DNA from: Chiloscyllium plagiosum
Taxonomy: Eukaryota
Length of the DNA: 64,000 nt
Direction of reading: 5' to 3'
NCBI RefSeq assembly: GCF_004010195.1
Contig: NC_057718.1
Span: 79,826,944 to 79,890,943 of the forward strand
Shown piece after piece: positions 651 to 62,515 of this stretch. The first letter of the stretch is position 1; the number at the start of each line of letters is the position of its first letter. The notes under the pieces are model-generated. The model was given only the letters and a program-made list of their open reading frames with translations. It did not search any database and was not told the origin of the DNA. The position numbers were made by a program, and so were the translations under genes.

Positions 651-748
651 TCTGATGAAGAGGCTTATGCCCGAAACGTCGATTCTCCTACTCCTCATAT
701 GCTGCCTGACCTGCTGTGCTTTTCCAGTGACACGCTTTTAAACTCTGA
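651..748 (+). mobile_element. Short Penelope-derived terminal fragment beginning at the hammerhead motif
   Basis: CTGATGAAGAGGCTTATGCCCGAAACGTC at 652-680, followed by the family tail GATTCTCC...GCTGCCTGACCTGCTGTGCTTTTCCAG. Confidence 0.8.
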
Positions 749-1382
749 GTAAAATAACCAATTAATGCCACATTCTGTTGTGTAGGTCTATGCCACTAGG
801 TACCAGAATGATGCCAAACTAATTTCACAAGTGAACTCTAAGTTTGACATGTCTCCAATTCCCTCACTGTGCGTGCAGTCAGGGTAAGACGGAGGGGAGA
901 GTTAATGCCTTATTTCAAATCTCTATTTCAAATTACCCGGCTTCAGGCACAGCATGGCTGCCTGCCTCAAAGGCATATGTTAAATTCAACTATGGCCTCC
1001 AGTCCACCAGAAAAGATCCAACTCCTGATTAAAAAAAAATCCAGGGAAGAACCAGAGGATGCCTTTGACGTCCTTTCACCTGAATCTCACCAGGGCCTCC
1101 CACCCTCCAGCAAACTGATCTTGCTTTGCTAAGGGCTGTTTCAGTGTGTTCCTCGCCGCACCCTATCCTCCAATCAATTTTGCTCTTTGCCTGATGCAGG
1201 TAGCATGATCTTGCATTCATCAATTTATAGATATTGCCTCAGGCAGTTTATAGGTACCTCTATTTTATGAAGTTCTTATAAAGAACCAAACGTGTTAGAT
1301 AATTTTAATGAGTTTATAATTTCCTGGTCTTGGAACCTGAGTCAATTGTTAAATCATTCATATCTGGTTAAAAATCACATAA

Positions 1383-1499
1383 GCTGAAAATGTGTTGCTG
1401 GAAAAGCGCAGCAGGTCAGGCAGCATCCAAGGAACAGGAGAATCGACGTTTCGGGCATAAGCCCTTCTTCAGGAAGCATCTGCAGCCCTCGCTTTCTCC
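1383..1499 (-). mobile_element. Short Penelope-derived insertion with a 15-bp TSD, nested in a second Penelope terminus (about 1368-1620)
   Basis: TTAAAAATCACATAA is duplicated at 1368-1382 and 1500-1514. An intact minus-strand motif CTGAAGAAGGGCTTATGCCCGAAACGTC lies at 1445-1472, and a short inverted piece ends the insertion. Confidence 0.85.
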
Positions 1500-4071
1500 T
1501 TAAAAATCACATAACACCAGGTTATAGTCCAACAGGTTTATTTGGAAGCACTAGCTTTCGGAGCACGACTTCTTCACCAGTTGGTTGTGGAGTATAAGAT
1601 TGTAAGACACAGAATTCATATCTGGAATGTTACACAGTCACACTTTGTCAAACTCAGTGAACATTTTGCAAGCTAAATTGCTGTTAGTTCTGATTCAGAA
1701 CAGGAAGAACTATCCTGGAAAGATTCTAATGAATGTCATAGAAATACATTGCAAAACCTAACAAGAGGATTAGAGAAAACTATCTTGTTTACCTTCTACT
1801 ATCTTGGTAGCGACCACTTCAACCAGTAGTGGAATTGTAGAACAACCATGCAATTAGTCAATTAATGTAAACCAGATGCAAAAGGGACTCTTATGGCTCA
1901 TTCATATTGTCCCCTGGACCAAGAGATTTAGGTTCAAGTTCTACCTGCGCCAGAGATGTATAATACCATCTCTGAACAGGTTGATTAGAAATATAGATTT
2001 TAGAAAAAAGATCCAGATGCTACAACAGGAAAACACTCAATATTGGAAAATCACTTGCTTCTCCCAAGCATGTTACACTTACCTGCCACACCTCAAATTT
2101 CTTCTATGCTGTATCCTAAAATATTACTTTCTGAAAATTTAAATTTCAATCATCAAATACTAACTGCATTTGACATTTATGAGAGAAGCTTTTTCAAGAG
2201 ATTGAACACTTACAGAAATAGCTGGTAAAGGTTCCCAGCTGCTAAAAGAAGTGGGTCATGGTGATATATTTGGGAAAACCAGGTGAAACACCTAACAAGG
2301 ACATTCTCAACGTTGAGAAGTAAATATCTCATTTTCCAACCAAGTGTTAGATGGCCCGAGTCAAGATTCTTTCTAGTGTGTGCCAAAAGGCCTCTTTGCA
2401 AGGTTGATTACTGCTTCTTAGTCACCTTCGGTAATATGCTGTTTCCCATTCTTCCACTGACTGGATAGAAACTGGATGATGACAAATCCCAAAATAAAAG
2501 TCAGGGTGGTTACCTAGCAACTCCAATTCACCTCTGCATCTCCATCTTGGATGCTTAGCCCCAACATCTCACGACACAATCCGCGTGCAATGAGCATACA
2601 AATTCCATGACCACAGACATTGGTATCTGACACATACCAGCCTCGCTGCCTCATCATGGCACATCATTGATCTATTTACCATATGTTTTTGCACTTCTGT
2701 GCTGTACTTTGGAGCACAACAACAGGTTTCATTAGAATGCTGCTGTCAGGACACTATGTGCAGGACAGGTATCTATCTCATGGATTTGTCACTCTCTTAG
2801 CACTCACTCACTTTGTGCCTACTTCAATGCTCACAACATTGCTGCTTTCTGATGAGATTGGAGGCAAAATGCTGAGATGTAGAGGGGATTACAATTGTGA
2901 AGGGGTGCAACTAAGTAGATAAGTGGTCGAGACAATCATTCAATTAAATAACAAGCGCACAATGGAGATGAACATAGTTGTGCCACAGTCAGAGTGGGTA
3001 GGTTAAGTCTTTCATTCCATGAGGGAGGGGGTTTCAGTTACAATTGTAGTGAGGCCCTTAAAAGGCAACAGTGTTACACAGACTTCCATTCACTAAAACT
3101 AAAATACTGCTATGGGCACGTTATTTTATGTGAACCCATGGCATTAACCTACAATTCAGAGTCCAAATCCTTGTCCCTAGCACTCTTGATGGCCATATTA
3201 TGCAACTTTATGAAAGAATCCCATTAATGGCTGTGCTGCACTCACAGTATTTAGGTGCCTGGAAAGAATGACCCTAATTGCCAAAGTAGATATCATCCTC
3301 CAGTTCTCATATTCTGCACATGGTGCAGGAGCTGCTTATTTCATACCTTGGACCATAAAACATTGTGCAGAGCTAGGAACAGCTATGCTCTGACCCTCCA
3401 ACGTTGTAATTGCAGTGAGATAGACATTTACACTGATGAAGAAAAGTGAACATATATTTATAAATGTTATAACATATTTATACTGACGTGTTTTCGGAAA
3501 TCTTGTTTCCCTCTTCACAGTGGGATCTTGGTTTCCATAGCTGAGGTGGTGGGAGCCTCCCTCACAGTGGTTTTCTTGTTTTGGTCAGGCAACTCCAGGA
3601 GCATTTGTGTCTAGAGGGCCCAGACATGTTGTGTGTGTACTGCCTTGAGACAGGTGCATTCCCCTCCACACAGGGCTGAGGGTGGAAGTATTGGCCACCT
3701 CTGGAGTATTCTGAGAATAGAGTTCATGGGGCCTGTTTAAGGGTTGTCCTTCAGTATGGTTCCTATTGGCACTGCCATGTCTCCTAGTGAGGAAGGACCT
3801 GCAGTGAGGTCAAGGTCCCTGTTCCTCTGTCGCCTTGCTCCAATGGTTAGACCTATGGAGTGTGGCACTGTGCACATATCCAAATTTCAAATGAAGATTT
3901 GATACTTTCCACAAGCAAAGAAGGAAAACAGAAGTGACAGAAGCTTGAAACACTTGTGCAGCTCATATTAGGCAGTTCAGGGGTATCAGTTGCTAGTCTG
4001 ATTTTAGTTCAAGAAATATAAAACATACAAGAATTACATCAAGAGGAAGCTAACTTGCCATTTGTAGCAAT

Positions 4072-4296
4072 TGCAATGAGGTCAACCAGGTGGATCTCAT
4101 AGAATAAGAGTTCCCTGACTGGGCTGTTAATCTGGCCCAGTCAGGGAGCCCTCACTGACAGATAAGAACAGGGGTGTCAGACATTCTGTTCATCTGAATT
4201 CTGGCCCTGAGGGAGCTGGATCAGTGTCAAGGACTCTCCACGTGTTAATAAAGGGTGACTTGTTGACGGAAGACCACCCTCTGTGGACTTATTTCA
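4072..4296 (+). mobile_element. Solo LTR (Gypsy-type)
   Basis: TG...CA termini, a TATA-like GATAAGAA, AATAAA near the 3' end and an internal hairpin TTCCCTGACTGGGC...GCCCAGTCAGGGAG. No convincing TSD. Confidence 0.6.
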
Positions 4297-4737: not shown

Positions 4738-4862
4738 GGAGAAAGTGAGGTCTGCAGATGCTGGAGATCAGAGCTGAAAATGTGTTGCTGGAAAAGCGCA
4801 GCAGGTCAGGCAGCATCCAGGGAACAGGAGAATCGACTTTTCGGGCATAAGCCCTTCTTCAG
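4738..4862 (-). mobile_element. Short Penelope-derived insertion with a 7-bp TSD
   Basis: TATTTTA at 4731-4737 and 4863-4869. On the minus strand the insertion starts exactly at the CTGAAGA of the hammerhead motif. Confidence 0.85.
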
Positions 4863-5634: not shown

Positions 5635-7032
5635 AAAAGTAGGCAAAAAAATGAAAATCAGGCAGCAACCAAAAGTAGCCTCATGAGGATCATTTCTCAA
5701 GACTCATCAGAACATCAGGGGTACATTGCCGAGGACTAAAATCGGATGTGAATACCAGACAGTAGTGAGCACTAAGTGAAAGCAGCAATCAGAAGGACAA
5801 CCATTGTTACAGTCGAGGGAGTAGCTCCAGAGCTCAAGTGAGCTGTGGTGCCTAATTTGTCACTCTCAGAAACACTCCACTGACAGACCACATCAGACTC
5901 AGAAAGTGGGGGTTGCAAGAAAATATTTATGAGGTAGCGAACTGTACCAGGCTTAGATGAAAAAATGGGTAAAAAGAATTGTTCTGAACCTTACTATAAT
6001 GCAGTGGGGACCATCAGAAACAATGTAGTTGCAGCACTGGATATTGATGAAAATACAGCATTGTATGAAGTAGTATTGAGGGCATTTGATGCAAACATCA
6101 CTATGAGAAAATATTAATAATAGAGCATGCAAAACCTAATCAAAAAATACAAAGGCTTGAGGACAGCATTAAAATTATTTAAAAATGATCTTTACTGGCT
6201 AGCAGACATTTGCACTCCGGGCTTGGAGCAGAATTATTTTGTGACTGGGGGATCATGGCTGGAATTTCATATGAGGCCTTGTCACACATTTTACAGGCTG
6301 GAAACAATTTGACAGTTTAAAAAAAAAGCAGTTCTGTTCCTTGGTAGGCCAGCTTCAGAGACATTACAATATATTTATTCAAGGGGAGCATGAAATGTGA
6401 TGGAAGAACTTGAGTTCAATGGTTCAGTACACTGGCCACATAGAAGAATGGGTGTGAAATATGCAGCATGCCAAGTTTGAGAAAAGCATGTTATTTGTCA
6501 TTTTGAAACAGAGACATGGAGGGAACAAAGCACAAGAACGAGATGACTGCCTAGAAAGACAGAACACTTTGCCAGACTGTGGAAAGGTTGGACATTTTAA
6601 CAAAGCATTCAGGCTATCAGTGCAGAATACAATGAAGCAAAGTGTACAATATCAAAGCCAAATAAAGAGCTGGACACACCATAGAGGCAAAAAACATATT
6701 TTTCAAAGAAATTAACAACTCTAGAAATAAATATTGGACTGTCAAAGTACAAGTGAATGGGCACATTTTGGAGTTTAAACTTATATTGGAACCAGTGTTT
6801 TTGTATTATTAGATCACCCTGAATAGCTTAAATTACAGTCATTCTCAATTAAATTACAGAGACCAGAAAATAAAAAGTGAATGAAGCAAAGCTCAGGTGC
6901 AAGAGAAGATAAATCATGAAATTCTTTATCTTGTTCAGAATCAAATCTGTTCTCTTTATAATGTATGCCTAATGCTAAAACTAATTCAAAATTTGAACAG
7001 ATTGTGGGTGTAGACTAAGGTAGTAAAGTTGG

Positions 7033-7231
7033 TAAAAACAATGACTGCAGATGCTGGAAATCAGATTCTGGATTATTGGTGCTGGGAGAGCACAGCAGTT
7101 CAGGCAGCATCCAAGGAACTTCGAAATCGACGTTTCAGGCAAAAGCCCTTCATCAGCTGAGCTGGAAGTTTAGAACTAGGGTGAGGTGGGGAAAGGGGAA
7201 ATGAGGAAACTGTTGAAGTTTACATCCACAT
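7033..7231 (-). mobile_element. Short Penelope-derived insertion into the Gypsy pol with a 17-bp TSD
   Basis: TAAGGTAGT(A/G)AAGTTGG at 7016-7032 and 7232-7248. Minus-strand hammerhead motif CTGATGAAGGGCTTTTGCCTGAAACGTC at 7129-7156. Confidence 0.85.
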
Positions 7232-12142: not shown

Positions 12143-13890
12143 TCATAGAACCATACAGCATGAAAGCAGCTACTTCAGTCCAACTCATCAATGCTGACCA
12201 GACCTCTCACAGTAATTTAGTCCCACTTGCCACCACGTCTTTTAAATGTCGTAATTGTACCAGCCTCCACCACTTTCTCTCGTAGCTTTATTCCATACAT
12301 ACACCATCCTCTGCATGAAAATGTTGCCCCTTAGATCCCGTTTAAATATTTCCCCTCTTACCATAAACCTATGCCCTCTAGTTTGGACTCCACTACCCTT
12401 GGGAAAATACCTTGGCTATTCACTCTATCCGTGCCCCTCATGACTTGACAAACCTCTGTAAAGGTCATCCCTCAGCCTCTAACACTTGAGGGAAAATAGC
12501 CACAGCTTATTCAGCCTTGCCTTATAGCGCAAACCCTCCAAACCTGGCAACATCCTTGTAAATCTTTTTTGTATCATTTCAAGTTCCACGACATCTTTCC
12601 TATAGCAAGGAGACCAGAACTGAATGCAGTATTCCAAAAGTGGCCGAACCAATGTTCTATACAACCGCAACATGACCTCCCAACTCCAATACTCAATGTA
12701 CTGACCAGTAAAGCAGTAAAGGAAAGCATACCAAACAGATCCTTCACTATCCTGTCTCCCTGGGACTCCATTTTTAAGGAACTGTAAACCTGCACTCCCC
12801 AGGACCACAATACTCCCCAGGACCTTACCATTGAGTGTACATGTCCTGCCCTGATTTGCCTTTCTAACATGCAGCACCTTGCATTTATCTAAATTAAACT
12901 CTATCTGCCACTCCTTACCCCATTGGCTCATCTGATCAAGATCCCATTGTACTCTGAAGTAATCTTCTTCAAATCCAAACACCACCAATTTTGGTGTCAT
13001 CTGCAAACTTATTAACCATACCTCCTATGTTCACATCCAAATCATTTATATAAAAAACAAAAGCAGTGGACCCAGCACTGATCCTTGTGGCATGATGCTG
13101 GTTACAGGACTCCAGTCTGAAAAGTAGCCTTCCATCCTCACCCTCTGTCTCCTACCTCCAAGCCAGTTCTGCATTCAAAGGATTATTCTCCTTTTATTCC
13201 ATGTGATCTAACCTTGCTTAGCAGTCTATCATGCAGAACTTTGTTGAATGCCTTACTGAAGCCCATATAGATCACATCCACTGCTCTGCCTTCATCAATC
13301 CTATTTGTTACTTCTTCAAAAAACTCAATCAAGTCAGTGAGACATGATTTCCCACGCACAAAACCATGCTGACTGCCCCACTCAGTCCTTGCCTTCCAAA
13401 CAAAGTCTGTTCTGATATAATGTGATAGTTCCGTCCTCGTGCAATCCCATTTACACAAAAATCATATAATAGCAGCACCATTTAAACCAATAGGACCGGA
13501 ACCGCATTATTGCCATTATAGGTAAGGAAAATTTGTGTTCTACAAATAATGGTCTAAATTCTTCAATTGCACTATAGCCAATTCACATTGAAGAAACACA
13601 CGTTATAGCAGAACCAACTGAACATGTAAATCTGGTCCCTCTGGATCCCCTCCAACAACTTGCCAACCACTGATGTCAGGCTCATCAGTCTATAGTTTCC
13701 TGGCTTTTCCCTACCACCTTTCTTAAATAGTTAGCCCACCTCCAGCCTTCTGGCACCTCACCTGTGGCTATTGATGATATAAATATCTCAGCAAGGGACT
13801 CAGCAGTCTCTTCCTGAGTTTTCCACAGAGTTCTAGCGTACACCCAATCGAGTCCCATGGATTTATCCACTTTTATGCATTTGAAGACCA
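12143..13890 (-). mobile_element. HER1/CR1-type LINE, 5'-truncated RT and 3' end
   Basis: ORF fragments SQHGFVRGKSCLTDLIEFFEEVT...DVIYMGFSKAF and LYRTLVRPLLEYCIQFWSP, plus a 3' tail near 12143. Confidence 0.92.
13403..13620. mobile_element. Tc1/mariner (pogo/Tigger-like) MITE inserted in the CR1
   Basis: Terminal inverted repeats AAGTCTGTTCTGATATAATG ... CGTTATAGCAGAACCAACTG. The CR1 sequence CCTTCCAAA|CATGTAAAT resumes on both sides. Confidence 0.7.
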
Positions 13891-13924
13891 GTAAAAATAA
13901 GGAAGAGTATAAATCAGAAATTAG

Positions 13925-14185
13925 GTCAGTAGACACCTTCTCAGTTTTGGTTGTTCTTTTAAGACAGAGATTGAGAGGATTTTTTTTCTTGCACAGGGTT
14001 TTACAAATTTGAAACTCTGCCTCAGAAGTGATGGAGGCAGAGTCATTGAATATTTTTAAAGTGGAGGTTTATAGATTCTTGATCAGCAGGGGAATAAAAC
14101 ATTATAGGGAAACAACGTGAATGTAGAATTTGGAACACAAATAGATCATCCAGGAACCGACTGAATGATGAAGCAGGCTGGAACC
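13925..14185 (+). mobile_element. Old CR1-type LINE 3' end
   Basis: TTTAAGACAGAGATTGAGAGGATTTTTTTTCTTGCACAGGGTT...GAGGCAGAGTCATTGAATATTTTTAAAG. Confidence 0.6.
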
Positions 14186-14671
14186 AAGACAGGACCAAGA
14201 AACTGATTGGAAGCTAACAGGGAAAATTCAGTGACTGAAATGATCATTTAAACATATAAATGCCTGCAGCAAATTTCCTTAAGCTGACAGTGGAGCAATA
14301 ATAAACTTATGCACAAAACTGTGTTGAGACTACAGATAAAGATATCAGTGAGATAGAGAGACCTGACTTATTCAAGACATTGCTCAAGCTGATAGGCCTC
14401 AGTCCGTTGCATAGGAATGTAGAACAGTCAGATCCAAAATTGGTTGGGATACTGAGAATGATTATCATAGCCAAAAAAAGCTGAGTTTCAGGAAAGAGGA
14501 GAGCATGAACAAAAGACATTGGAGATGAAGTTGAAAACTAACATGACAGCAAAATGTCACTGAGGGAATTAACTACACTACTGGCAAATATTTGGTTATG
14601 TCCTAGGTACTCTGCACAGAAGGTCAAAGCAGTTTAAGCAGACTGGAAAACAGGAAAGAACCAGATGTCTC

Positions 14672-15350
14672 ATTCAGCCACCTCCAAACAGACCCCACCA
14701 TTGAGAATATATTTCCCTCCCTTCCCCTATCAGCGTTCCGGAAAGACCACTCCCTCCGCGACTCCCTCGTCAGGTCCACACCCCCCACCAACCCAACCTC
14801 CATTCCTGGCACCTTCCCCTGCAACCGCAAGAAATGCAAAACTTGCGGCCACACCTCCCCACTCACTTCCCTCCAAGGCCCCAAGGGATCTTTCCATATC
14901 CGTNNNNNNNNNNNNNNNNNNNNNNNNNNNNNNNNNNNNNNNNNNNNNNNNNNNNNNNNNNNNNNNNNNNNNNNNNNNNNNNNNNNNNNNNNNNNNNNNN
15001 NNNNNNNNNNNNNNNNNNNNNNNNNNNNNNNNNNNNNNNNNNNNNNNNNNNNNNNNNNNNNNNNNNACCTGCAATCTTCTTCCCGACCTCTCCGCGTCCA
15101 CCCCCTCTCCGGCCTATCACCCTCACCTTAACCTCCTTCCACCTATCGCATTCCCAATGCCCCTCCCCCAAGTTCCTCCTCCCTACCTTTTATTTTAGCC
15201 TGCTTGGCACACCCTCTTCATTCCTGAAGAAGGGCTTATGCCTGAAACGTCGATTCTCCTGCTCCTTGGATGCTATCTGACCTGCTGCGCTTTTCCAGCA
15301 ACACATTTTTCAGCTCTGATCTCCAGTATCTGCAGTCCTCACTTTCTCCC
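14672..15350 (+). mobile_element. Penelope-like element 3' part (GIY-YIG region and terminal hammerhead), spanning an assembly gap
   Basis: HLQTDPTIENIFPSLPLSAFRKDHSLRDSLVRS...GTFPCNRKKCKTC. Hammerhead motif CTGAAGAAGGGCTTATGCCTGAAACGTC at 15224-15251. Confidence 0.88.
14904..15066. other. Assembly gap
   Basis: Run of N. Confidence 1.
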
Positions 15351-15749
15351 TCTTTTCATAGGTATCCCATTTGAGTTTCTCCCTGTAACGTGCTAAGTGG
15401 ACCTTTACTGTTCTTGATGCATTTTGAAGGTTTGTTTCTCCTATTACTGGCTATAAGAGGCTTTTTGAGACAGTGTTTGATGGATTCTCTGAATGAGTTT
15501 TCTGTTCAGAGATGTTTCTTTCGCAGTAGCAGCTGTTCACTTCTAATTTCCAGGTTCACTCTGAGCGGCCACAGCCAAGCGCTCGTTATGATGGGAGGGC
15601 ATTGGTGAGTGAGTGTGAGGGATCTATCCACTGGGCTTAACCGTGCTTTGCTTTTGTTGTTCTTGTTTTTTTGTTGCTTCTGCTCCTGGAGCAGGGAGGG
15701 ACATTTAAACTCAGTTTGTATAGAGGCTTCTGCAGTTGCGGCCTGAGCA

Positions 15750-16950: not shown

Positions 16951-17049
16951 GAGAGAAGAAACACGCAAAAGCGGAAATTGTTGGAGAAACTCAGCAGATC
17001 TAGCAGCATCTGTAGAATTAAAACAAGAGTTAGTTTTGAGAGCAGTGGG

Positions 17050-39795: not shown

Positions 39796-40812
39796 CCTAA
39801 CAGCTACCTGGACTACACCTCCTCCCATCCTGCCCCCTGTAAAAACACCATCCCATTCTCCCAATTCCTTCGACTCCGCCGCATCTGCTCCCAGGAGGAC
39901 CAGTTCCAAAAACGCACATCCCAGATGGCCTCCTTCTTCAAGGACCGCAATTTCCCCCCCGACGTGGTCGACGATGCCCTCCACCGCATCTCTTCCACTT
40001 CCCGATCCTCCCCCCTTGAATCCCGCTCCTCCAACCGCCACCAGGACAGAACCCCACTAGTCCTCACCTACCACCCCACNNNNNNNNNNNNNNNNNNNNN
40101 NNNNNNNNNNNNNNNNNNNNNNNNNNNNNNNNNNNNNNNNNNNNNNNNNNNNNNNNNNNNNNNNNNNNNNNNNNNNNNNNNNNNNNNNNNNNNNNNNNNN
40201 NNNNNNNNNNNNNNNNNNNNNNNNNNNNNNNNNNNNNNNNNNNNNNNNNNNNNNNNNNNNNNNNNNNNNNNNNNNNNNNNNNNNNNNNNNNNNNNNNNNN
40301 NNNNNNNNNNNNNNNNNNNNNNNNNNNNNNNNNNNNNNNNNNNNNNNNNNNNNNNNNNNNNNNNNNNNNNNNNNNNNNNNNNNNNNNNNNNNNNNNNNNN
40401 NNNNNNNNNNNNNNNNNNNNNNNNNNNNNNNNNNNCCACAAGGGATGGACTCGGATTTCACCAGTTTCCTCATTTCCCCTCCCCCCACCTTGTCTCCGTC
40501 AAATCCATCAAATTCAGCACCGCCTTCCTAACCTGCAATCTTCTTCCCGACCTCTCCGCCCCCACCCCAGTCTGACCTATCACCCTCACCTTGACCTCTT
40601 TCCACCTATCACATTTCCGACGCCCCTCCCCCAAGTCCCTCCTCCCTATCTTTTATCTTACCCTGCTGGACCAACTTTCCTCATTCCTGAAGAAGGGCTA
40701 ATGCCCGAAACGTCGATTCTCCTGTTCCCTAGATGCTGCCTGACCTGCTGCGCTTTTCCAGCAACACATTTCCATCTCTGATCTCCAGCATCTGCAGACC
40801 TCACTTTCTCCC
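39796..40812 (+). mobile_element. Young Penelope-like element 3' part spanning an assembly gap
   Basis: SYLDYTSSHPAPCKNTIPFSQFLRLRRICS...DRTPLVLTYHP. Intact hammerhead motif CTGAAGAAGGGCTAATGCCCGAAACGTC at 40687-40714. Confidence 0.92.
40080..40435. other. Assembly gap
   Basis: Run of N. Confidence 1.
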
Positions 40813-41324
40813 TAAAAATGATTAAGCACAATCTATGATGCTATACTCACCTCAGATTTCACTCTGTCAACTGATTCCTCCGCTTACCAAATTTATGAAG
40901 TCTTCTTAGTCAATTTTCTCAATTTTGCAGAGTAACTTATTTCTAAGTATAAGTTCCATGTTTTTCTCTAGGATTGTACATGGCATTGTGAGTTGATGGA
41001 TATCTCCACAATTTGGAGCATTTCTGAGGGAATCTGAGTATGATAAATATGTGTTGTTGAGACTACTGAGGGCTCTTTGTCCATATCCTCGCATGTGAGC
41101 TGATTGTCCAAGGCATGTCTGCAACCCTGAGTCTGAGGTGCATTTCTGTGTAACGTCTTCAATTCAAACATTGAGAATTCAGTTTGTATTGCCAAGGTCA
41201 TGGCCTTTTCTAATGTTATATCATTGTCTTCACCAAGGAGGTGTTCTCTAATTTATAAAATTGAGGATTTTCTATAAGTTGGTCCTGAATTAGGTCATTT
41301 ATTAATTAGTGTGCCAAATGTATA

Positions 41325-44875: not shown

Positions 44876-47108
44876 TGTGTCTCAGACTTGTGCAGATTTG
44901 ACACATCAGGTTTATTGGTTGAGCAGAAGTTTTGTTCAATGCTTCAAAATGTCGACTCCTTCCACCTTACTTTTAGTTTCTCAGCAACTGCATTTTCAGG
45001 CTTGATTAATGGCAGATAGCAAAGAAAACAGGCTATGGATAACTACAGTTTAACATTGAACAAATAAACTCAACTGCATTCCAGAATAGTATTTAAATAG
45101 CTGTCAAATGCTTTGGAATATTTTGAGCTTAAATTGTGGAAATAAATTGTCAATTTATAAACAAGGACCTCTTAAAAAAAACATTTATTTTCCTGTTGTA
45201 GTGGCAAAGTCATTGCTATTTCGGAGAAATGTGTATATTCTCATTGAAATAGAACTAATGATCAATCATAATGAGGCTGGAATAAAAGATTGCACAAGCC
45301 AGAGGATACATGCCCATTCTTAACAAATTCTGTCATCACCAATGGCTTGTTTTCAATGTGATCCAAACTACTTCTAACAGTCATCTTTGGCAACATGTGT
45401 GGAGAGAAACAGACTTAACATTTAAGGTTAATTACCTTTCACTAGAACATTCATTAGACCCTGAAATGTTGGCCACGGAAGATAGCTAACATGCTGAATG
45501 TTCCCAGCACTTTTTTGTTTTTATTTCAGATTTTTAGCCTCAAATATTTTTCTTTTCTGTTCATAAAAGATCAATGTTTTGAAATTTTGTAATTACTGGT
45601 CTTAACTGACATGTAAAAATAGTTATCAAACTGATAGAAAGTAGAGAATGTGATAACTTGTTTATGTTCAGCATTTGAAGTCAGAATATCCAAAGAAAAA
45701 AAGATTTTAAAGGTTTACATATTTGACTAACTAATAGGAGCACTCCAGAGTAAGGCCTTATTCTAAGTTTTATCACTGAGCATGGGTGCAGACTGTATTC
45801 ATTGACGGAGAAGCTGGACTGAGATGCTGCTTAAATTTAACAGTTCAGATAACCTTTCACCAGAGCAAAACTAAAATGATTTTTTTTTGATAAACAGGAG
45901 TATGGAAATGTCACTAGTTACTTAATCTAATTCAAAATATCAGCCTAGTAAAAGACTTACAATATCATAGCAACACCCCATCCCTGGTTGTCTTCTGATG
46001 AAACTGATTGAATAAATACACCAGCAGTACTAGGGTAGTTTAATTTAAACATATCTTGAAAACTCTAGTCAGTTAAGTTTATCCAAGCGTGAGTGTCCTT
46101 GTTTATTCCAATTGTTCAACTACTAATCTATAATTACTGTAAATAAAGTCACTGGAAAAAGCATAGAACTAAACAGCATACATGTAATCAACCAACAAGA
46201 ATATCAAGGATCCAAACAGTTTGCACAATATTTTGTTTGTATAAATATTTTACCTACTCTTATATCATTCCTCTTTTTACAATTTAATGGAAATGCTAAT
46301 CTATTTGAAGCAACCCATAAAGAAGCTGTCCTAAGAATAGACTTTTCAAAACTGTCAACATAGCCGGTTGAGAAATAAACTTTAAAAATCTGCAAGAAGA
46401 AATAATCCTGCCCTCTTATGGAAGTCCGACATGGCAAATTCATACCTTGCTTTATTAATGTCTCCATAGTCCTGATGCGTGATCTGCAAGGGATACTTTC
46501 TATGGCTTTCCACTGAGAGCAAGAGGGCAAGGCAGGGAATTGCTCAGAAGGTGACCAGAAGAAGCATGCTATCACACCCTTGAATACAGTGCCAGAATCA
46601 AGTGCTTCAATGATTTAAACAAAGCAGAAATATTGAGAACAATGACATCCTCAACTATACCTCTCCACTCTGCCTTCCCAAGCTCACTCCCCATACCAAC
46701 TGACCAAGCAAATACTTACTTATCTATCGATGCACTTCTTCACATCTCCATCTGTACATCCATCACAGATACAATTACACCTTAACACAAAATGATAATC
46801 TCGATCACAGTTATCCTCAAATACAGTCTATTCATCCATCTATTCACCATATTCCATTATTCTCCTTCATAGGTTTCAAGGTCCAAGTTAATTTAACATA
46901 AGCAGTACCCATGCTGATCTGATATATCATAGACATAAATTGGAGGTCAGACAGACATATCAAAATAGTGAAGGTCATCACAAATGTCATTAAAGTGATC
47001 TACAATGTATGTAGAATAGTTGAAGTAAACTCTCAGACCAATTTTTATGAGCAAAGCTTTGTACACGATTAGGCATGGAAGCAGCTGTGTGGTTTATTTT
47101 ACAGGTTC

Positions 47109-48369: not shown

Positions 48370-49375
48370 GCTACAGCAGTATAACGTGCAGGTAAGGCCA
48401 CACCTGGAATACTGTATACAGTTTTGGTTTCTTCACTTGTGAATGGATATACTGGCTCTGGAGGGGGAGCAGAGGAGGGGGCTGTGTGGAAACAGGCCCT
48501 TCAGCCCAACAAGTCCACACCGACCTTCCGAAGAGTGACCCACCCAGATCCATTTCCCTACCCTATATTTACTACTGACTAATGCACCTAACTTGCACAT
48601 CCCTGAACACTATGGACAATTTACCTACTCAGATCCATTTCCCGACCCTATATTTACTGCTGACTAATGCACTTAACCTACACCTCTCTGAACACAATAG
48701 ACAACTTACCTAATCTGCACATCTTTGGACTGTGGGAGGAAACCGGAGCACCCAGAGGAAACCCGCACAGACTCAGGGAGAATGTGCAAACCCCACCCAT
48801 ACAGTTGCACAAGGCTGGAATTGAACCCGGGCCTCTGGTGCTATAAGCCAGCAGTGCTAACCACTGAGCCACCATTCCTAGGTTCACTAGGTTGATTCCA
48901 GAGTTGAGAGAATTGTCTTATGAGGAAAGATTGAGTAGCCTGGGACTATCCTCAATCGAATTTAGAAAAATGAGGGGGAATCTTAAAGAAACATATAAAA
49001 TTATGAAGGGAATAGTTAATACAGAATCAGGGAGGTTGTTTCCACTGGCAGGTGAAATTAGAAGCTTGAGCTAGGGGGCTTAGCCTCAAAATAAGAGGGA
49101 GCAGATTTAGGACTGAGCTGAGGAGGAACTTCTTCTCTCAAACGCTTCTGAATCTGTGGAATGAAGCAGTTGAGGCTATCTCACTGAATATTTTTAAGGC
49201 AAAGGTAGATTTTTGAATAGTAAAGGAATTAACGGTTATGATGAACGGATGGGGGGGAGGGAGTGTAAATGGAGCTGAGTACACGAAACAGACCAGCCAT
49301 GACCTTATTGAATGGCAGAGCAGGCTCAAGGGGCCAGATGTCCTACTCCTGCTCCTAGTTCTTTATGTTATGTTG
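48370..49375 (+). mobile_element. CR1-type LINE 3' fragment interrupted by an HE1-type SINE
   Basis: VRPHLEYCIQFW (~48390) continues after the SINE as LSYEERLSSLGLSSIEFRKMRGNL. Confidence 0.88.
48481..48878 (-). mobile_element. HE1-type SINE with an internal ~84-bp tandem duplication
   Basis: CAGATCCATTTCCC...ACAA(T/C)TTACCTA occurs twice (48546-48627 and 48630-48712). Confidence 0.88.
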
Positions 49376-49519: not shown

Positions 49520-51003
49520 TATACGACCGATAGGGTACCCTTCATTGTCCAGTACCTCCCAGGAGCAGAAAAACTTCGCCATGTTCTTCGTGCATGCAAC
49601 ACATTGTTGCTGAAGAAAAGCACCTCGCCAAGACCTTCCCAATGCCTCCACTTCGCAACAAACCTTAAATAGACCATTGTTTGCAGCACACTGCCCAGCC
49701 TTTAGGACAACATTAACCACAACACAGTACAACCTTGTCATGGCAACCGCTGCAAAATGTGTCAGAGTGTCGACACAGATACCAGCATTACATATCGGGA
49801 CACCACCCACTGTGTACATGGCAGATACTCATGTGACTCGGCCAATGTTGTCAATCTCATACGCTGCAGGCAAGGATGCCCTGAGGCATGGTACATTGGC
49901 GAGACCAAGCAGAAGCTACGATAACAGGTGAATGGACACTGCACAACAATCACCAGATGGAGTGTTCCCTCCCAGTGGGCAAACACTTCAGCAGTCTGGG
50001 ACATTCAGCCACACATCTTCAGGTGACCATCCTACAAGATGGACTTTGGGACAGGCAACAATGCAAAGTGGGCGAGCAGAGGCTGATGGCCAAGTTTGGT
50101 ACCCATGAGGATGGCCTCAACCAGGACCTTGGGTTCATGTCACACTACAGGTGACCCCATTACACTCTACACGCTCTCACAGGCACACGCAAGCACACAT
50201 ACACATACACTCTTATATTCTCACACACTCACGCAGACCCTCTCTAATTCACATGCTCTCTCTCATATACACACATATACACCCCCCACACTCACACTCA
50301 CATTCACGCACACACCCTCTCCAGGCTTATACCTCATCACACTCACACATATACTTTACCAAGCTTGCACACACGCAAACACACAGTCTCTCACATGCAC
50401 TCACATTCACACGCACACACTCACATGGTCTCTCTCTCTCACTCTCTATCCACACATGTAAGTCTATGGGGTGAATTTGTATTGCAAAATCATACTTGCA
50501 GATACATTCTATTTTGCTCAAAAATGCACAACCTGTAGGCAGTCAGTGCAGGCAATCAATCCATGGAACATTTTGTAAATTCCACTTTCGAAATAGAAGC
50601 AATCTGACTCAAGATTGAGACATAGACAGACTCTGACCTCACACCTTTAAAGTATTGTCTGAGCTGAGATGTCACCTTTTTTTTTTATAAAACCTTAAGC
50701 TATCTTGAGAATATGACTTAAAAGTTCTGGGATTTACATATTAATAAACCAAAGCCTGTAACCTATTCTAAAAGATGAAAGACTTAACAGCAATCTAGAT
50801 TCATTCAATTAATCATTTTACTTGCATGACACTGTAATCTTTTGCTATAAATTCTGTGTCTTACCGTCCTGCTCCACAGCTACTCGATGAAGGAGCAGTG
50901 CTTCGATAGCTAGTGCTTCCAAATAAACCTGTTGAACGAAAACCTGGTGTTGTGTGATTTTTAACTTTGTCCACCCCAATCCAACACTGGCCCCTCCATA
51001 TCT
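49520..51003 (+). mobile_element. Penelope-like element, second family (GIY-YIG and CA-rich 3' region)
   Basis: DRVPFIVQY and CPEAWYIGETKQKL. Mutated hammerhead at ~50884-50912. Opposite orientation to 30511-32107. Confidence 0.92.
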
Positions 51004-51593
51004 TGTCTAAATTGCTCATTACATCAGCAAAGAATTCTAACAGATTTGTCAGATGTGATCTCCTCTAGATGAAGTCATGCTGACTCAGCTGTTTTACCAT
51101 GCACTTCGAAGTGTTCCACAATCTCATAATCAATAATGGTTACTCTAGAATCTTACTAATGACTAAGATCAGACTAACCGGCCTACAACTTCCTGTCTTC
51201 TGCCTCCCTCCCTTTTGTAACAGGGGTGTTACATCAGCCATTCTTCAGACCTCTGGGACGCTCCCTGACTCCAGTGATTCCTGAAAAATCACCACCAATG
51301 CCTCAACAATCTCCTTCAGAAGTCTGGGGTGTAGTCCATCTGGTCTGTGTGATGTATCCACCTTCAGACTTTTCACCTTCTCAGCATCTTCTCTTTAATG
51401 GTGGCCATTACATTTACTTCTGTCCCCTGACTCTCTTTAAATTCTGGTATGTTAGTGGTGTTTTTCACTGTGAAATTAAATGCAAAGTACTTATTCACTT
51501 CCTACGTCTTTTCTTTGTTCCTCATTATGTCTTTCTAGCCTCATTTTCCAGCTTTCCAATGTCCACTCTTGCCTTTTAGATATCTAAAAAAAA

Positions 51594-51630: not shown

Positions 51631-53330
51631 TTGGGAGCCTCCTGTGAAGCGCTTCTGTGATCTTTCCTCCGGCATTTGTAGTGGTTTGAATCTGCCGTTT
51701 CCGGTTGTCAGTTCCAGCTGTCCGCTGCAGTGGTCGGTATATTGGGTCCAGGTCGATGTGCTTGTTGATTGAATCTGTGGATGAGTGCCATGCCTCTAGG
51801 AATTCCCTGGCTGTTCTCTGTTTGGCTTGTCCTATAATGTAGTGTTGTCCCAGTCAAATTCATGTTGCTTGTCATCTGCATGTGTGGCTACTAAGGATAG
51901 CTGGTCGTGTCGTTTTGTGGCTAGTTGGTGTTCATGGATGCGGATCGTTAGCTGTCTTCCTGTTTGTCCTATGTAGTGTTTTGTGCAGTTCTTGCATGGG
52001 ATTTTGTACACTACATTGGTTTTGCTCATGCTGGATATCGGGTCCTTGGTTCTGGTGAGTTGTTGTCTGAGAGTGGCTGTTGGTTTGTGTGCTGTTATGA
52101 GTCCTAGTGGTCGCAGTAGTCTGGCTGTCAGTTTGGAAATGCTCTTGATGTATGGTAGTGTGGCTAGTCCTTTGGGTTGTGGCATGTCCTCGTTCCATTG
52201 TCTTTCCCTTAGGCATCTGTTGATGAAATTGCGGGTATCAGTTTTTGGCGAATACATTGTATAGGTGTTCTTCTTCCTCTTTTTGCAGTTCTGGTGTACT
52301 GCAGTGTGTTGTGGCCCTTTTGAATAGTGTCTTGATGCAACTTCTTTTGTGTGTGTTGGGATGGTTGCTTTTGTAGTTCAGGATGTGGCCTGTGTGAGTG
52401 GCTTTCCTGTGGAGAATTCACCACAAAGGTATACAGGAAAACCACTCACACAGACCAAGTCCTGAACTACGAAAGCAACCACCCCAACACACACAAAAGA
52501 AGTTGCATCAAGACACTATTCAAAAGAGCCACAACACACTGCAGTGCACCAGAACTGCAAAAAGAGGAAGAAGAACACCTATACAATGTATTCGCCAAAA
52601 ACGGATACCCCCGCAATTTCATCATCAGGTGTCTAAGGGAAAGACAATGGAACGAGGACATGCCACAATCCAAAGGACTAGCCACACTACCGTACATCAA
52701 GAGCATTTCCAAACTGACAGCCAGACTACTGCGACCACTAGGACTCATAACAGCACACAAACCAACAGCCACTCTCAGACAACAACTCACCAGAACGAAG
52801 GACCCGATACCTATCATGAGCAAAACCAATGTAGTGTACAAAATCCCATGCAAGAACTGCACAAAACACTACATAGGACAAACAGGAAGACAGCTAACGA
52901 TCCGCATCCATGAACACCAACTAGCCATGAAACGACACGACCAGCTATCCTTAGTAGCCACACACGCAGATGACAAGCAACATGAATTCGACTGGGACAA
53001 CACTACATTATAGGACAAGCCAAACAGAGAATAGCCAGGGAATTCCTAGAGGCATGGCACTCATCCACAGATTCAATCAACAAGCACATCAATCTGGACC
53101 CAATATACCGGTCACTGCAACGGACAGCTGGAACTGACAACCGGAAGCGGCAGATTCAAACCACTACAAATGCCAGAGGAAAGATCACAGAAGCGCTTCA
53201 CAGGAGGCTCCCAAGCACTAAGGATTGTCACCTAGACAGGGGACGAAACGTCTGCAACACAAATTCCCAACTCGGCGAACAGAACCACAACAACGAGCAC
53301 CCGAGCTACGAATCTTCTCCCAAACTTTGA
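51594..53330 (+). mobile_element. Young Penelope-like insertion with an ~820-bp inverted duplication and a 12-bp TSD
   Basis: ORF VYRKTTHTDQVLNYESNHP...NVVYKIPCKNCTKHYIGQTGRQL (RT thumb and GIY-YIG). Arms 51594-52410 and 52433-53252. TSD ATCTAAAAAAAA at 51582-51593 and 53331-53342. Confidence 0.95.
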
Positions 53331-53784
53331 ATCTAAAAAAAACCTTTGCTATTTTCTTTTGGTGTTATTAGCTGCTTTACCCTCATTTTTGATTTCTCCT
53401 ACCTTATTGCTTTTTTTTTAAGTTGTCCTCTGCTGGTTTTTAAAGGCTTCCCAATCATCTGGCTTCCCACTAATCTTCACCACGTTGTATGCTTTTTCTT
53501 TTGCTTTTATGTTGTCCCTGACTTCCCTTGTCAGCTATGGTTACCTCATCCTCTCCTTAGTATTTTTTTCTTCTTCTTCTTCTTTCGGGTGAATTTCTTT
53601 TGTTCCTCTGATTTACCCCCAGAAACTCCTGCCATTGCTGCTCCACCGTCTTCCCTGGTCGGGTCCCCTTCCGGACAAGTTTGGCCAGCTCCTTCCCCGT
53701 GTTTTTGCTGTTAGCTTTACTCAATTATAATGCCATTACATCTGATTCCAGCTTCTCTTTCTCAAACTGCAGGGCAAATTCTAT

Positions 53785-53842
53785 CATATTATGTCACTCA
53801 CTCACTCATATTATGTCACTCACTCACTCATATTATGTCACT
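53785..53842 (+). repeat. 22-bp tandem repeat, about 2.6 copies
   Basis: CATATTATGTCACTCACTCACT twice, then CATATTATGTCACT. Confidence 0.95.
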
Positions 53843-56865: not shown

Positions 56866-56982
56866 GGCTCATGCCCGAAACGTCGATTCTCCTGCTCCTT
56901 GAATGCTGCCTGACCTGCTGCACTTTTCCAGCAACACATTTTCAGCTCTGATCTCCAGCATCTGCAGTCCTCACTTTTTCCC
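56866..56982 (+). mobile_element. Short Penelope-derived terminus starting inside hammerhead stem II
   Basis: GGCTCATGCCCGAAACGTC followed by the family tail. GGTTTCAGG flanks both sides as a probable TSD. Confidence 0.8.
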
Positions 56983-57259
56983 CGGTTTCAGGGAGTGAAC
57001 AGTTGGGTCAGGGAGCGTGAGTGAAGGAGTATATAATTGTGTTCATGAGTAATTGGGGGGCAGACAATTGGGTGGGAGTTCACTTATTGGGGGGGGGGGG
57101 GGAATCAGTTGGCTATTTGGAGGGTGTGTAATTGAGTCAGGGTGGGGAGGAGTTGGGAATGTTGGAGGCAGGATATGTAAGGAATACGATTGCTTAAGTT
57201 ATGCTGTTAATCACCAGATATTAAACAGTGTAAAAATTCTAGACTAAATATTTGGGTAA

Positions 57260-57752
57260 CTAGCCTCCATTGCCACAGTGAATCAGACCATAAGTTGGAG
57301 GACAATACCTCATCTTCCACGTCAGCAGCCTACAGCTCAGAGGACTCAACACTGAGTTCCCCAATTTCAAATAACTTTCTCATCCATCCCCCGACTCTCT
57401 TTCTAGCCCCGCATCCCTCCTTCTATCCCTCCGACCGACACCTCCTTCCAGCTACCAACTGGATTCATTCCTCCCATTGGCCTGTCTCTGTGCAGTAGGA
57501 CTCTATGACTCTGACCAACCAGGTCATACCCACCCTGTATTCACTTATCACTACCTTACCACTCTGCCCCTCTCCCCAACCATAACCCTTCCTTCCCCTT
57601 TCTCTTTATCTGCAACTCTCCCTACCTCCACCTCCATTCCTGAAAAAGGGTTATACCTGAAACATTAACTCCTCCACCTCCTGATGCTGCCAAGCTTGCT
57701 GTATTCTTCCAGCTTCCTGCTTGTCCACTCTGGATTCCAGCATCTGCAGTTT
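57260..57752 (+). mobile_element. Older Penelope 3' end with decayed hammerhead
   Basis: KLEDNTSSS region, a C-rich tract and CCTGAAAAAGGGTTATACCTGAAAC...CCAGCATCTGCAG. Confidence 0.75.
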
Positions 57753-58605
57753 TGAATTGAATTGAATTCAATTCAACCTGCAGGGTTTTTTTTGCCTCTG
57801 CATATCTAGCCTAATGCTCCGATCAAATCTGTGTAAGTGACATTCACAGAAGGTTTAGGACTGTGCAAATCAGCCCAGTGGAACTAACCTTCCCAGGCAA
57901 TTACAGTGCATGTGTGTATATCAGGATATCAAATGTATTATGACTCAACATTCACTGCTGCATTTGGCCCAATATTTCACTGGAGAATCCTGAATTCTTT
58001 GAAGAATTCTTGTCAAAAGTGAAATTTACAAATTCTCCAATAGTTGTCAAATAAGCCAGTCAGAGAGTGAAAGAAAGATTCATTCTCTTTTATGCGGCAA
58101 GAAACACAAACTATGCAGGAATGACAAGCTTAAAAGGAATAAAAACAGCAGATGTTCATCCATCAATCCAGCAGGAGGTGGTTGCAATTGAAATCCTGGC
58201 GTTTCAGGCAACTGAGATGATCTGAGAAGACGACTTGGGAGGCCGTGAAGGAGCTGCTGGTTTATGCAGAACAAATGCTAATGCTCAGAGATCAAAGAAG
58301 GCATCCAAAAACAAATGCTGACCAAAGATCTTTGCAGTCAAATAGAGCAGCAATCCAAATTTCAAATCCTCGGGTGACACTTAAACCAGTTTTGAATAGG
58401 ATTAAGTGAAAATAGAAAAATCACAAAAGACCCAGTGTGAAGTTTGAGTCCTTATGATTGTTGCTTTCAGAAATGATGTACCAATGTCCATGAAAATGGT
58501 ACACTGAAACCAAAATGGATGCTAATAGATTAGGGATCCTCAAATCACTTCTGTTTACAGACAAATTTAATGTTGCAAATTACTGTACATGAAACTCTGA
58601 AAAAG

Positions 58606-58710
58606 GTTTCTGAAGACAGGTCACTGGACCTGAAAGGTTAACTCTGCTTTTTCTCCACAGATGTTGTCAGACCTGCTGAGTTTTTGATAGTAATTTCTGT
58701 TTTTGTATTT
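58606..58710 (+). mobile_element. Short terminal element with hammerhead-like motif (family D)
   Basis: CTGAAGACAGGTCACTGGACCTGAAAGGTTA at 58610-58640. Related copies at 62190-62290 and 38403-38500. Confidence 0.7.
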
Positions 58711-59027: not shown

Positions 59028-59230
59028 AGTCGCCATAGTCTAACTAGACTATAGGGCTGCTCTCTTCTTAGAGAGAAACAACTGGTGATGATTTAACCTG
59101 AGGGCTACCACACTTCAGAGAAGGGGAGATGTTCTTCATGGTAACCTCAGCTGGTGTGGAAATTGAACCCATGCTGTTGGCATCATATTGTTTCACAAAC
59201 TGACCATCCAGCCAAAATAACTAAACCGAA
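59028..59230 (-). mobile_element. Old tRNA-derived SINE
   Basis: The minus-strand head has B box GGGTTCAATTTC, followed by a non-tRNA core. A distantly related copy lies at ~27960-28090. Confidence 0.55.
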
Positions 59231-59236
59231 GGACTT

Positions 59237-59325
59237 CACCTGATGAAGGTGCAATGCTTCAAAAGCTTGTGATTTCAAATGAACCTCTTGGACTATAACC
59301 TGGTGTTGTGTGACTTCTGACTTTA
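59237..59325 (+). mobile_element. Penelope terminus, family B, beginning at the hammerhead
   Basis: CACCTGATGAAGGTGCAATGCTTCAAAAGCTTGTG (GAAA mutated), followed by the tail shared with 26150-26210. Confidence 0.8.
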
Positions 59326-60700: not shown

Positions 60701-60952
60701 TTAGTAAGCACCCAATCCAGCTCAGGCTGAATTCCTACACATACAAGATATTATTAACTGTACAGATGTGGCAATCAAGACATGCTCAGATTAACCTTTA
60801 AACATTTCACTTTATCCATGTGCAGCTTGTGCACAATTACAAAAGTATTTAGGTAGGCTACAATTCCTCGACAGAGGTCATGATATTTTTGACTTATGGC
60901 AGTGCACCCTCTCTAATTTCTTTGGTTCAAAGCAGATGTGTTCTTTGGAAGT

Positions 60953-61996
60953 TGTTATGATCAGACTTTGGGTGAAGTTCCCCTATTTGTTATGGTTCCA
61001 GATGGAATACCCAAACTGTTAATCTCCTGAGTGAGAAGTGTTGAATTGACCCGCTTTTTCTATTCACCAGCTCCCTCAATTGTTCACCAGATTAATTTTA
61101 AAATAATCCCTTCCCTTCTGGATACCTCTTCTCCCAGATACAAATGAACTTATATTTAAAAAGGAACCAATTCAACCAGACTTTCTTAACAAAAAGTGAA
61201 TTTATGAATTCCTAAAAACAACAAGAATTAACAATGCAACACACATGCATACATAAGAAATGAGTTGATTCAAAAGGATATAAGTTTTTTTTTAAGAAAT
61301 GGATCAGTCACTGAATTATTCAGAAAAAATGTACAGTTGAATGATGCAGCCATTGATGTTCGTGGTCGATTTCATGATCCCTGGTTTTGCAAATTGGCTG
61401 AGATTTTGTACTTTTGAATCCTTTTGATCAAAACCGAATTCCAGCATTCAGAATGAAACAGAATCCTTTTTTGCCCCTTTCCAACTTGTTTGGCTGCTAG
61501 GTAGGTGACTTCTGTCATCAGGGTGAGAGGTTCTTGACCTGCAATACAGGATGTAAGTGGGGGATACTTCTTCAACTGTGACCTTTCCTGCACACCTATA
61601 CTCACAGTCAGATGATAACACAAGCACATTCAATCTCACTAGCACACTCAAGTAGAATTAAAATTTACTTTTTAATCCCTGTACTTGATTATTCTTCAAA
61701 TGGAAAAAAATCACAAAAGTGTTGGCAGTTTAGGACATAATTTGCATCAGGCGGCTTGCTGTTGAGGAAGGAGTTTCTCAGACCTTTATTATTTTTGCAG
61801 TAACAAAAGATTACAGTCCCAACTGTTTGAAGCTTTTTTGACAACTATAGGTTTTATATCCCATTGGATTCAGACAGGTTTTTTTTTAACCACTAGCCAT
61901 CTTGAATTATTTTGTCTTTATAGCAATCCTATTTTAAAAGACAAATTTTGGAACTAAGGGCTAAGAACACCTCTAGAAGTCTGCAGGATCACAGCA
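60953..61996. mobile_element. Possible solo LTR
   Basis: TGTTATGATC...GATCACAGCA form imperfect inverted termini (8/10). No TSD. Confidence 0.3.
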
Positions 61997-62177
61997 CTCA
62001 TGTGTGAAATGAACTCATCAGTCTTTGTACGTGCACACAATGAGCTGGAACACCTGGCAGTATATCATATTGCTTCCTGCTGCAGCACAAATATTCCCTT
62101 TGTTGATGATTCCTAAGGTTCCTTACCAGGTGAGCAGAGCTTAGAGCATTCTATGGCCTCTGATACTGACTCTCCAT

Positions 62178-62515
62178 TCTGAAGAAGTTCTGAAGAAGGG
62201 TTGCTAGACCTGAAACATTAACTCCACTTTCTCTCCATAGAAGCTGGCAGGCCTGCTCAGTTTTTCCAGCATTTTCTGGTTTTGTCTCTCGATTGTTGTC
62301 TCTCCACCATTTCTGATGACGGGTTTTTGCCTGAAACATCGATTTTCCTGCTCCTCGGATGCTGCCTGACCTGCTGTGTTTTTCCAGCACCACTTTAACC
62401 TTGACACCAAACCCCTCAGCCTGCCTTCTGAAGCGTACTCCAGCACAACGACACGCTTGGTCGTGACTCTAATCTTGACTCTAATCCCTAGCATCTGCAG
62501 TATCCACTTATGCCC
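62178..62515 (+). mobile_element. Two adjacent short Penelope-derived termini, each starting at a hammerhead motif
   Basis: CTGAAGAAGGGTTGCTAGACCTGAAACATTA at 62190-62220 and CTGATGACGGGTTTTTGCCTGAAACATC at 62313-62340. Confidence 0.8.

Follow-up and report, generated by a model that had tools for sequence, protein, structure and literature searches.

Short Penelope-like element copies with 5′ edges at the hammerhead core in Chiloscyllium plagiosum: a possible run-off origin

Related systems and the elements of the window

We analyzed short, hammerhead-bearing copies of Penelope-like elements (PLEs) in a 64-kb stretch of Chiloscyllium plagiosum DNA (contig NC_057718.1, positions 79,826,944 to 79,890,943 of the forward strand; hereafter the window). 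The closest described systems are Neptune-type PLEs, which are endonuclease-positive (EN+). As described in PMC8557442 and PMC3846280, they have a reverse transcriptase (RT) followed by GIY-YIG, 5′ truncation, an inverted 5′-truncated partner, a one-sided 30-40-nt tail, target site duplications (TSDs) and a hammerhead in the terminal repeat. The copies in the window share all of these features. Truncation is variable in those accounts, whereas most copies of our subfamily F1a stop at one cliff, at -4 (offsets are in nt relative to the first C of CTGANGA, which is 0; negative values are upstream). The anole Poseidon element PAc (Frangieh et al. 2024, PMC11167929) is also similar as described there, with two 3′ ends separated by the length of one tail, targets that are rich in AT, a hammerhead just upstream of the priming sites, and no sign of ends at the ribozyme cut site. 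The PAc open reading frame (ORF) starts in stem II, whereas the translated unit of the shark elements has no protein match.

The motifs resemble the solo minimal hammerheads of metazoan PLEs described by Cervera and De la Pena (2014, PMC4209133) in the core, one unpaired base before helix II, a palindromic helix III and a short helix I. That paper states that most motifs occur singly, ascribes them to truncated PLEs, and proposes cleavage and circularization; unlike in that proposal, the copies here retain the core, which lies upstream of the cut site. Non-LTR retrozymes (PMC7229834; bioRxiv 10.64898/2026.07.22.740005), where LTR stands for long terminal repeat, are likewise described as non-coding, hammerhead-bearing and related to PLE terminal repeats. 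They form tandem arrays with canonical hammerheads and circular RNAs according to these sources, whereas the window holds dispersed single or head-to-head inserts with TSDs. Thus 5′ truncation, tails, inverted partners, solo hammerheads, promoters in the pseudo-LTR (pLTR) and internal priming are already published. We found no report in the open-access literature of a breakpoint peak at the 5′ edge of the hammerhead or of a run-off explanation, although the coverage plots in Fig. S2 of PMC11167929 may already show the peak.

The window is vertebrate DNA rich in repeats, with two N gaps. It contains three end-families with a hammerhead motif, F1 (subfamilies a to d), F2 and F3. F1 ends come after broken frames for RT and GIY-YIG (14.6-15.4, 29.0-30.5 and 39.8-40.8 kb); an F2 end comes after a broken frame at 30.5-32.0 kb. 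The nearest relatives of the RT fragment are shark and ray proteins (the top three with 73-75% identity); the frame at 29985-30515 is 73-75% identical to shark proteins carrying RVT_1, and these map back onto 29849-30522 and 39799-40080. The shark protein P0004 has GIY-YIG at residues 355-432 (E 8.6e-5), and its residues 332-461 correspond to 29316-29705, which lies upstream of the F1c end and places a C-terminal endonuclease there. A Pfam search of six window fragments returned no match. By eye, a Zn-finger-like Cys motif lies between RT and EN in P0002, P0004 and the window frames 14607-15131 and 29289-29951; a motif at this place is a Neptune feature, shared with Nematis (PMC8557442, as described there). 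Judged from these sequence features, the element is an EN+, Neptune-type PLE with a minimal hammerhead. No full-length element, with a pLTR on both sides of a full ORF, lies within the 64 kb. TSDs of the copies in the window are 7-16 nt, inverted 5′-truncated partners occur in the pairs at 26054, 34146, 39045 and 1382-1499, and the 30-40-nt tail is on one arm only in all three head-to-head pairs examined.

5′ edges pile up at the hammerhead core

Many short copies begin within a few nucleotides of the hammerhead core. The first-pass annotation had listed ten such edges near CTGANGA. All ten are present, at offsets of about -5 to +9, with that at 59237 between -2 and -10. The copies concerned are:

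652 to 748, plus strand: F1 short copy; 5′ edge at 0, no TSD, edge unverified
1382 to 1475, minus strand: F1a short copy from -3 to the first 3′ end (about +90); 15-nt TSD; inside an F2 3′ end
1475 to 1499, plus strand: inverted tail-only arm (+102 to +126) of the same insertion as 1382-1475
4738 to 4862, minus strand: F1a short copy from core to tail end; 5′ edge at 0, 7-nt TSD
26054 to 26245, both strands: F2b head-to-head pair; arms end at +16 (26139, minus) and -3 (26124, plus)
39045 to 39236, both strands: F1 head-to-head pair; arms meet at +5 to +7 and -3 via a common TTC
56866 to 56983, plus strand: F1a short copy starting in stem II (+9); 9-nt TSD
58608 to 58706, plus strand: F3 short copy; edge at -2, unverified; a short duplicate of the core start lies ahead of it
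59236 to 59325, plus strand: F2b short copy; no TSD found, edge anywhere from -2 to -10
62186 to 62288, plus strand: F3 short copy; edge at -4 (-4/-2), 10-nt TSD candidate with one mismatch
62308 to 62518, plus strand: F1c short copy with an internal insertion, behind the F3 copy; edge at -5 (-5/-2)

Firm edges are those defined by a TSD (4862, as had been claimed, 56866 and 1472), by an inversion junction (39158, the plus-side edge at -3 of a pair with a tail on one arm only, and 26124), or by comparison with a long copy of the same subfamily (62308). The edges at 652, 58608 and 59237 have none of these. The last is bounded by a different short repeat on the minus strand (59145-59229), presumably a tRNA-type SINE, which stops about 10 nt before the F2b core. 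Both short F3 copies have a 10-13-nt duplicate of the core start in front of them (58597-58609 and 62179-62189).

Upstream sequence does exist in longer copies, as had been noted for two of them; there are six:

14637 to 15351, plus strand: long F1a copy with an N gap at 14904-15066; core at 15224
28998 to 30515, minus strand: long F1c copy, its RT and GIY-YIG frames both broken; inside an F2 3′ end, 12-nt TSD
30516 to 32013, minus strand: long F2a copy with a GIY-YIG fragment; core at 30696 and an interruption behind it
39799 to 40811, plus strand: long F1a copy with an N gap at 40080-40435; core at 40687; reference for the read alignment
50600 to 51005, plus strand: long F2a end; core at 50884, TATAAA at -38
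57330 to 57755, plus strand: long F1d end; core at 57640

The listed edges come from all three end-families; those at 26124 and 59237 (F2) and at 58608 and 62188 (F3) belong to copies of elements other than the long ones that had been cited. Long copies of different F1 subfamilies also cease matching one another at -5 to -8, so the start of similarity alone is insufficient to define a 5′ edge. Several arms break elsewhere and were absent from the earlier list, at -62/-55, -33, -29, -20, about -80, +16 (26139) and +52 (32598). Most belong to the following copies:

1500 to 1613, minus strand: F2a copy; 5′ edge at -33 (1580), 12-nt TSD; a counter-example to the peak
34146 to 34482, both strands: F1c head-to-head pair with breaks at -55/-62 (34296/34294), tail on one arm; a counter-example
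38219 to 38325, plus strand: F2a copy; 5′ edge at about -20 (38239); a counter-example
38327 to 38500, plus strand: F3-like copy that retains about 80 nt ahead of its core (38404); adjoins an F2 3′ end
44391 to 44499, plus strand: F2 copy; 12-nt TSD, edge at -29 (44420) by TSD

In the last of these, homology to known upstream sequence starts only at -8. About 21 nt (44391-44411) lie between its TSD and its first element-like base.

We counted breakpoints over the copies in the window, with edges assigned by hand from alignments. Excluded before counting were a window-edge copy (3), the tail-only arm at 1475-1499, and decayed arms (near 17040 and the pair 45388-45510). Of 26 readable arms, 12 have their 5′ edge within -6 to +10 (P 1.8e-5). 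Here P is the simulated chance that any 17-nt span holds as many ends under a fitted exponential; the zone was picked after the data were seen, and the best-span simulation corrects for its position, not its width. The count is 9 of 23 (P 6e-4) when the three unverified arms are left out, 7 of 19 (P 0.0027) when each insertion contributes a single arm, and 8 of 15 (P 1.3e-4) for F1 alone. The break rate per nt is 0.0016 from +60 to +11, 0.035 from +10 to -6 and 0.0074 from -7 to -100, a low-high-low course that is incompatible with any smooth decay. No F1 short arm in the window ends between -6 and -54. By eye, the edges of the three excluded decayed arms fall at about -3, +9 and +11. The region 45388-45540 holds a decayed head-to-head pair whose arms resemble different subfamilies and both end in the hammerhead region.

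Reads and contigs from four of 24 listed public runs were aligned to 40436-40850 at 85% likeness (none aligned for run X22); alignment depth is not copy number. In RNA run X21, 3166 reads aligned, on both strands, and 94% of them continue into unlike sequence. These reads sample embedded copies. Depth on both strands is 169 and 175 at -41 to -14 and then 388, 950 and 1366, a 7.8-fold rise over 42 nt across the core versus 1.34-fold expected from the upstream slope. F1a reads alone number 1036 at 40764 versus 160 at 40672, so 15% are kept. The DNA contigs of runs X1 and X5, from two studies, also show steps, which are 4.1-fold and 9.2-fold when medians are compared and 1.9-fold and 4.5-fold when the ratio is taken most cautiously; the dip just upstream of the step reflects divergence from the reference. 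Among the loose ends listed for X21, the sole 5′ end with non-element-like letters is at 40683 (-4; 161 reads, with an agreement of 0.41 that marks mixed flanks). The three runs with data all have 3′ loose ends at 40771 and 40811, which have mixed AT-rich flanks and are the two tail ends. "Skip" joints ending at 40679-40686 were not used and may be long copies of other subfamilies.

The counts show a peak and read depth a step at the core, and the smooth exponential profile without a peak, which the first-pass annotation had named as the contrary outcome, does not hold. The pile-up of 5′ edges at the hammerhead core is real.

Possible origin of the short copies

We think that the short inserts are probably run-off copies of the 5′ end of PLE RNA. 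Short copies are drawn from the same subfamilies as long copies, and their 3′ ends lie at two fixed sites, about 90 and about 127 nt behind the core. The anole Poseidon enzyme is described (PMC11167929) as priming inside its own RNA at two sites and needing RNA downstream of them. Copying runs as far as the template's 5′ end in that account, and a shortened 5′ end gives shorter products; uncut RNA is used and ribozyme cleavage is unnecessary.

An initiator A that lies 4 nt ahead of the core would be the transcription start of the shark element, and its RNA would therefore open with the hammerhead. Priming at the 5′-proximal tail site, 90-127 nt from the RNA 5′ end, would then give a cDNA of 95-130 nt ending at the cap. 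Joining by microhomology may trim up to about a dozen bases, and such trimming would account for ends at -3, 0, +7 and +9 and for the lack of F1 ends just upstream of -5. Priming at the repeated site near the RNA 3′ end would give ordinary long copies, variably truncated. Short copies lack the AT box that lies upstream, and probably give rise to no further copies. Minus-strand strong-stop DNA of LTR elements also arises by priming near the RNA 5′ end, which gives a short run-off cDNA, and in L1 twin priming two primings on one RNA leave adjacent inverted pieces. By analogy with the latter, the insertion at 1382-1499, in which a tail-only arm abuts, head to head, a body ending at the first 3′ site, may record two primings on one RNA. 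The likeness to both is of mechanism only; there is no tRNA primer, LTR or poly(A) here, and the short product is integrated.

The predicted start lies next to these features of the long F1a copy:

40652 to 40656, plus strand: TTTAT at -35, 31 nt before the initiator A
40681 to 40687, plus strand: match to the initiator YYANWYY, with its A at 40683 (-4), the first helix I base
40683 to 40718, plus strand: minimal type I hammerhead motif, with 40714 (+27) as the last base before the predicted cut

Five of the six F1 arms with upstream sequence have an initiator match whose A is at -4, as does the F3-like copy at 38404, against a background of 6 matches per 548 positions. Within the 150 nt upstream, the only 5-mers at a fixed distance in the four F1 subfamilies are TTTAT (-35/-36) and CATTC (-5), and the spacer between them is identical at 7-10 of 22 positions in five of six subfamily pairs. 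The AT island thus sits 31-32 nt before the initiator A in four diverged subfamilies. The YYANWYY consensus and the TATA box-initiator spacing that this distance matches are given in PMC4581360. PLE promoters are located in the pLTR according to PMC2377424, PMC3846280 and PMC8557442, and a rotifer pLTR is described as carrying TATA- and initiator-like words (PMC3846280). We saw by eye no match to DPE or MTE at the expected places. An extra G, which may or may not stem from a cap, precedes -4/-3 in three of the listed contig joints; 62186 lacks it.

Several points weigh against this reading. TTTAT fits TATAWAAR at only four of eight positions (F2 fits at six), and other upstream 5-mers are common to the subfamilies within ±12 nt. 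CATTC is also part of helix I, so helix pairing alone could explain its conservation. The F2a TATAAA at -38 predicts a start near -8, and the copies end at -20, -33 and -29 (or -8); more generally, several F2 copies end at -20 to -33. Of the six loose ends listed for each of X1 and X5, none is a 5′ end close to the core. X21 shows no pile of molecule starts, and no RNA 5′ end has been observed. With no full-length element in the window, the tail is not seen to continue into an ORF, and the translated unit has no protein match. The tested Drosophila Penelope promoter is described as TATA-less, with starts further upstream and an intron before the hammerhead (PMC2377424, PMC4209133).

One copy bears on a bolder version of the run-off reading:

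7032 to 7231, minus strand: F1b copy with 75 nt of ORF end joined directly to the core; 16-nt TSD

Relative to the copy at 29121, about 180 nt of terminal repeat are absent, and the junction at 7156 is the first core base. This single case may record a jump from the RNA 5′ end to the 3′ part. We offer tentatively the possibility that most priming takes place close to the capped 5′ end of an RNA opening with an uncut hammerhead, that the short strong-stop-like product is integrated several-fold more often than longer copies, and that copies of the 7156 type are 5′-to-3′ jumps and a route to pseudo-LTRs and tandems. The regeneration of pseudo-LTRs and tandems has no obvious mechanism according to PMC2377424. 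In public contigs, a few joints run from +30 back to -4/-3 and are tandem cores.

An unlikely alternative is that the junction, rather than the template, sets the spot: inverted words near the core would supply microhomology for a fold-back or for the union of two cDNAs, and longer cDNAs would be resolved there. TTC at -3 to -1, GAA at +2 to +7 and stem II are such words, the arms of 39045-39236 meet exactly via TTC/GAA, those of 26054-26245 end at -3 and +16, and self-priming has been proposed for Penelope palindromes (PMC3846280). However, plain TSD-bounded copies without an inverted arm (4862 and 56866) share this end point, 3-nt matches are hardly rare along the element, and the 34146 pair joins at -55/-62.

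The first-pass annotation had proposed that reverse transcription stalls or switches template at the folded ribozyme. We give little weight to a stall or switch at a folded hammerhead, perhaps dimeric or bound by protein. The peak does coincide with the motif in three families and three arms end inside stem II (+7, +9 and +16). The anole ribozyme folds only with protein (as described in PMC11167929), so energy models may understate the fold. A polymerase coming from the tail would nonetheless meet the 3′ edge (+27 to +31) first, and most ends are beyond the far 5′ edge; the near side is where the break rate is lowest. Depth is near-flat across the predicted cut site, where it shifts by only about 10% (1366 to 1508). 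Compared with shuffles, fold z-scores are -0.49 and +0.52 for the motif alone, which is no better than shuffled sequence, -0.21 and -0.77 for the whole F1 unit, and -1.35 to +1.15 over all seven pieces. The stall is thus not supported, and a template switch is seen once, at 7156, where a physical RNA end fits equally well.

In a script-based survey of the motif, an intact CUGANGA and GAAA core with a helix II of at least 4 pairs and a UH site was found in 9 of 20 copies. The palindromic helix III 4-mer is present in 10 of the 20, and a single CpG-type change separates six more from it. Where upstream sequence is retained, helix I comprises 3-5 pairs; in F1 it is weak. The segment 62186-62226 is predicted to fold into the expected hammerhead shape. 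A search of the window against Rfam (E<=1) returned no hammerhead family, and the miRNA matches that it gave at 34237-34363 were rejected as the inverted pair itself.

The ~125-nt "hammerhead plus tail" had also been suggested to be a discrete unit that spreads as its own non-autonomous mini-element, which we judge very improbable. Unit-like copies with TSDs exist and outnumber long ones, non-autonomous derivatives of Penelope ends are known from descriptions of retrozymes (bioRxiv 10.64898/2026.07.22.740005) and MRC1 (PMC8557442), and Penelope can have an internal promoter (PMC2377424, as described there). As one family, the unit is not supported; short and long copies interleave. A single short clade is rejected (p-AU 4.7e-6, with 7 short rows among 15), the short or long state changes six times on the tree versus a shuffled mean of 4.6, and close relatives cross the length classes (short 4862 pairs with long 40687, and 62313 is closest to 34356). 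The tree has 15 rows and 127 columns, and small short-only subfamilies may go undetected in it. The 5′ ends vary from -5 to +9, and none of 13 tandem-repeat rows in the window covers hammerhead-plus-tail units.

An artefact, with subfamilies conserved from the core on and diverged upstream and with searches anchored on the motif, is equally hard to sustain. It would fit the cross-subfamily stops at -5 to -8, the three unverified arms and the roughly one third of X21 reads at 40764 that are not F1a (499 of 1535). Edges defined by TSD, inversion or the same subfamily still cluster (the 7 of 19 given above), F1a-only depth falls to 15%, and the loose letters at -4 are heterogeneous, so it is largely refuted for F1a.

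Three further candidates were rejected. Ribozyme cleavage does not make the ends, as copies keep the core and no arm in the window ends at +28; because the core upstream of the cut site is kept, the template RNA would have been uncut. No reads pile up at the predicted cut site, in an RNA library where such a pile would not show reliably. Inspection by eye led us to reject a type III fold with its cut immediately upstream of the core (the long copies have no hairpin ahead of it) and likewise splicing (long copies lack AG before the core). An ORF start in loop II is unsupported, since protein searches with the translated hammerhead-plus-tail unit gave no match and F1b and F1c are without that ATG.

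Nested insertions, other elements and significance

Several copies are inserted into the 3′ ends of other PLE copies. F1a lies in F2 at 1368-1613 (15-nt TSD) and F1c in F2 at 28960-30545 (12-nt TSD); further cases are F3-like sequence at the first F2 3′ end (38219-38500) and F1c behind F3 (62186-62518). The same T-rich stretch is hit in three of the eight F2 ends found, which suggests shared targeting of Penelope element ends. A 32-letter tail pattern had no match in metagenome, genome and viral contigs.

The window also contains other elements. Two Poseidon-type GIY-YIG ORF pieces lie head to head at 51832-53013, with no hammerhead end assigned. Broken frames at 36590-37630 resemble what we take to be the pol of a Gypsy-type LTR retrotransposon, and the segments 12479-14068, 19612-21017, 35673-36038 and 51178-51579 are presumably fragments of other LINE-type retroelements. 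There are local tandem duplications at 48538-48712 (85 nt, 2.1 copies) and 53784-53842 (22 nt, 2.7 copies, identical).

If the run-off reading is true, it would explain many solitary minimal hammerheads in animal genomes as a by-product of internal priming, and neither ribozyme activity nor a separate mobile family would be needed for them. It would link the in vitro finding of 2024 with a signature in the genome, argue for an uncut template and predict a capped start at -4. If the bolder version were also true, each short insert would mark the RNA start to the base.

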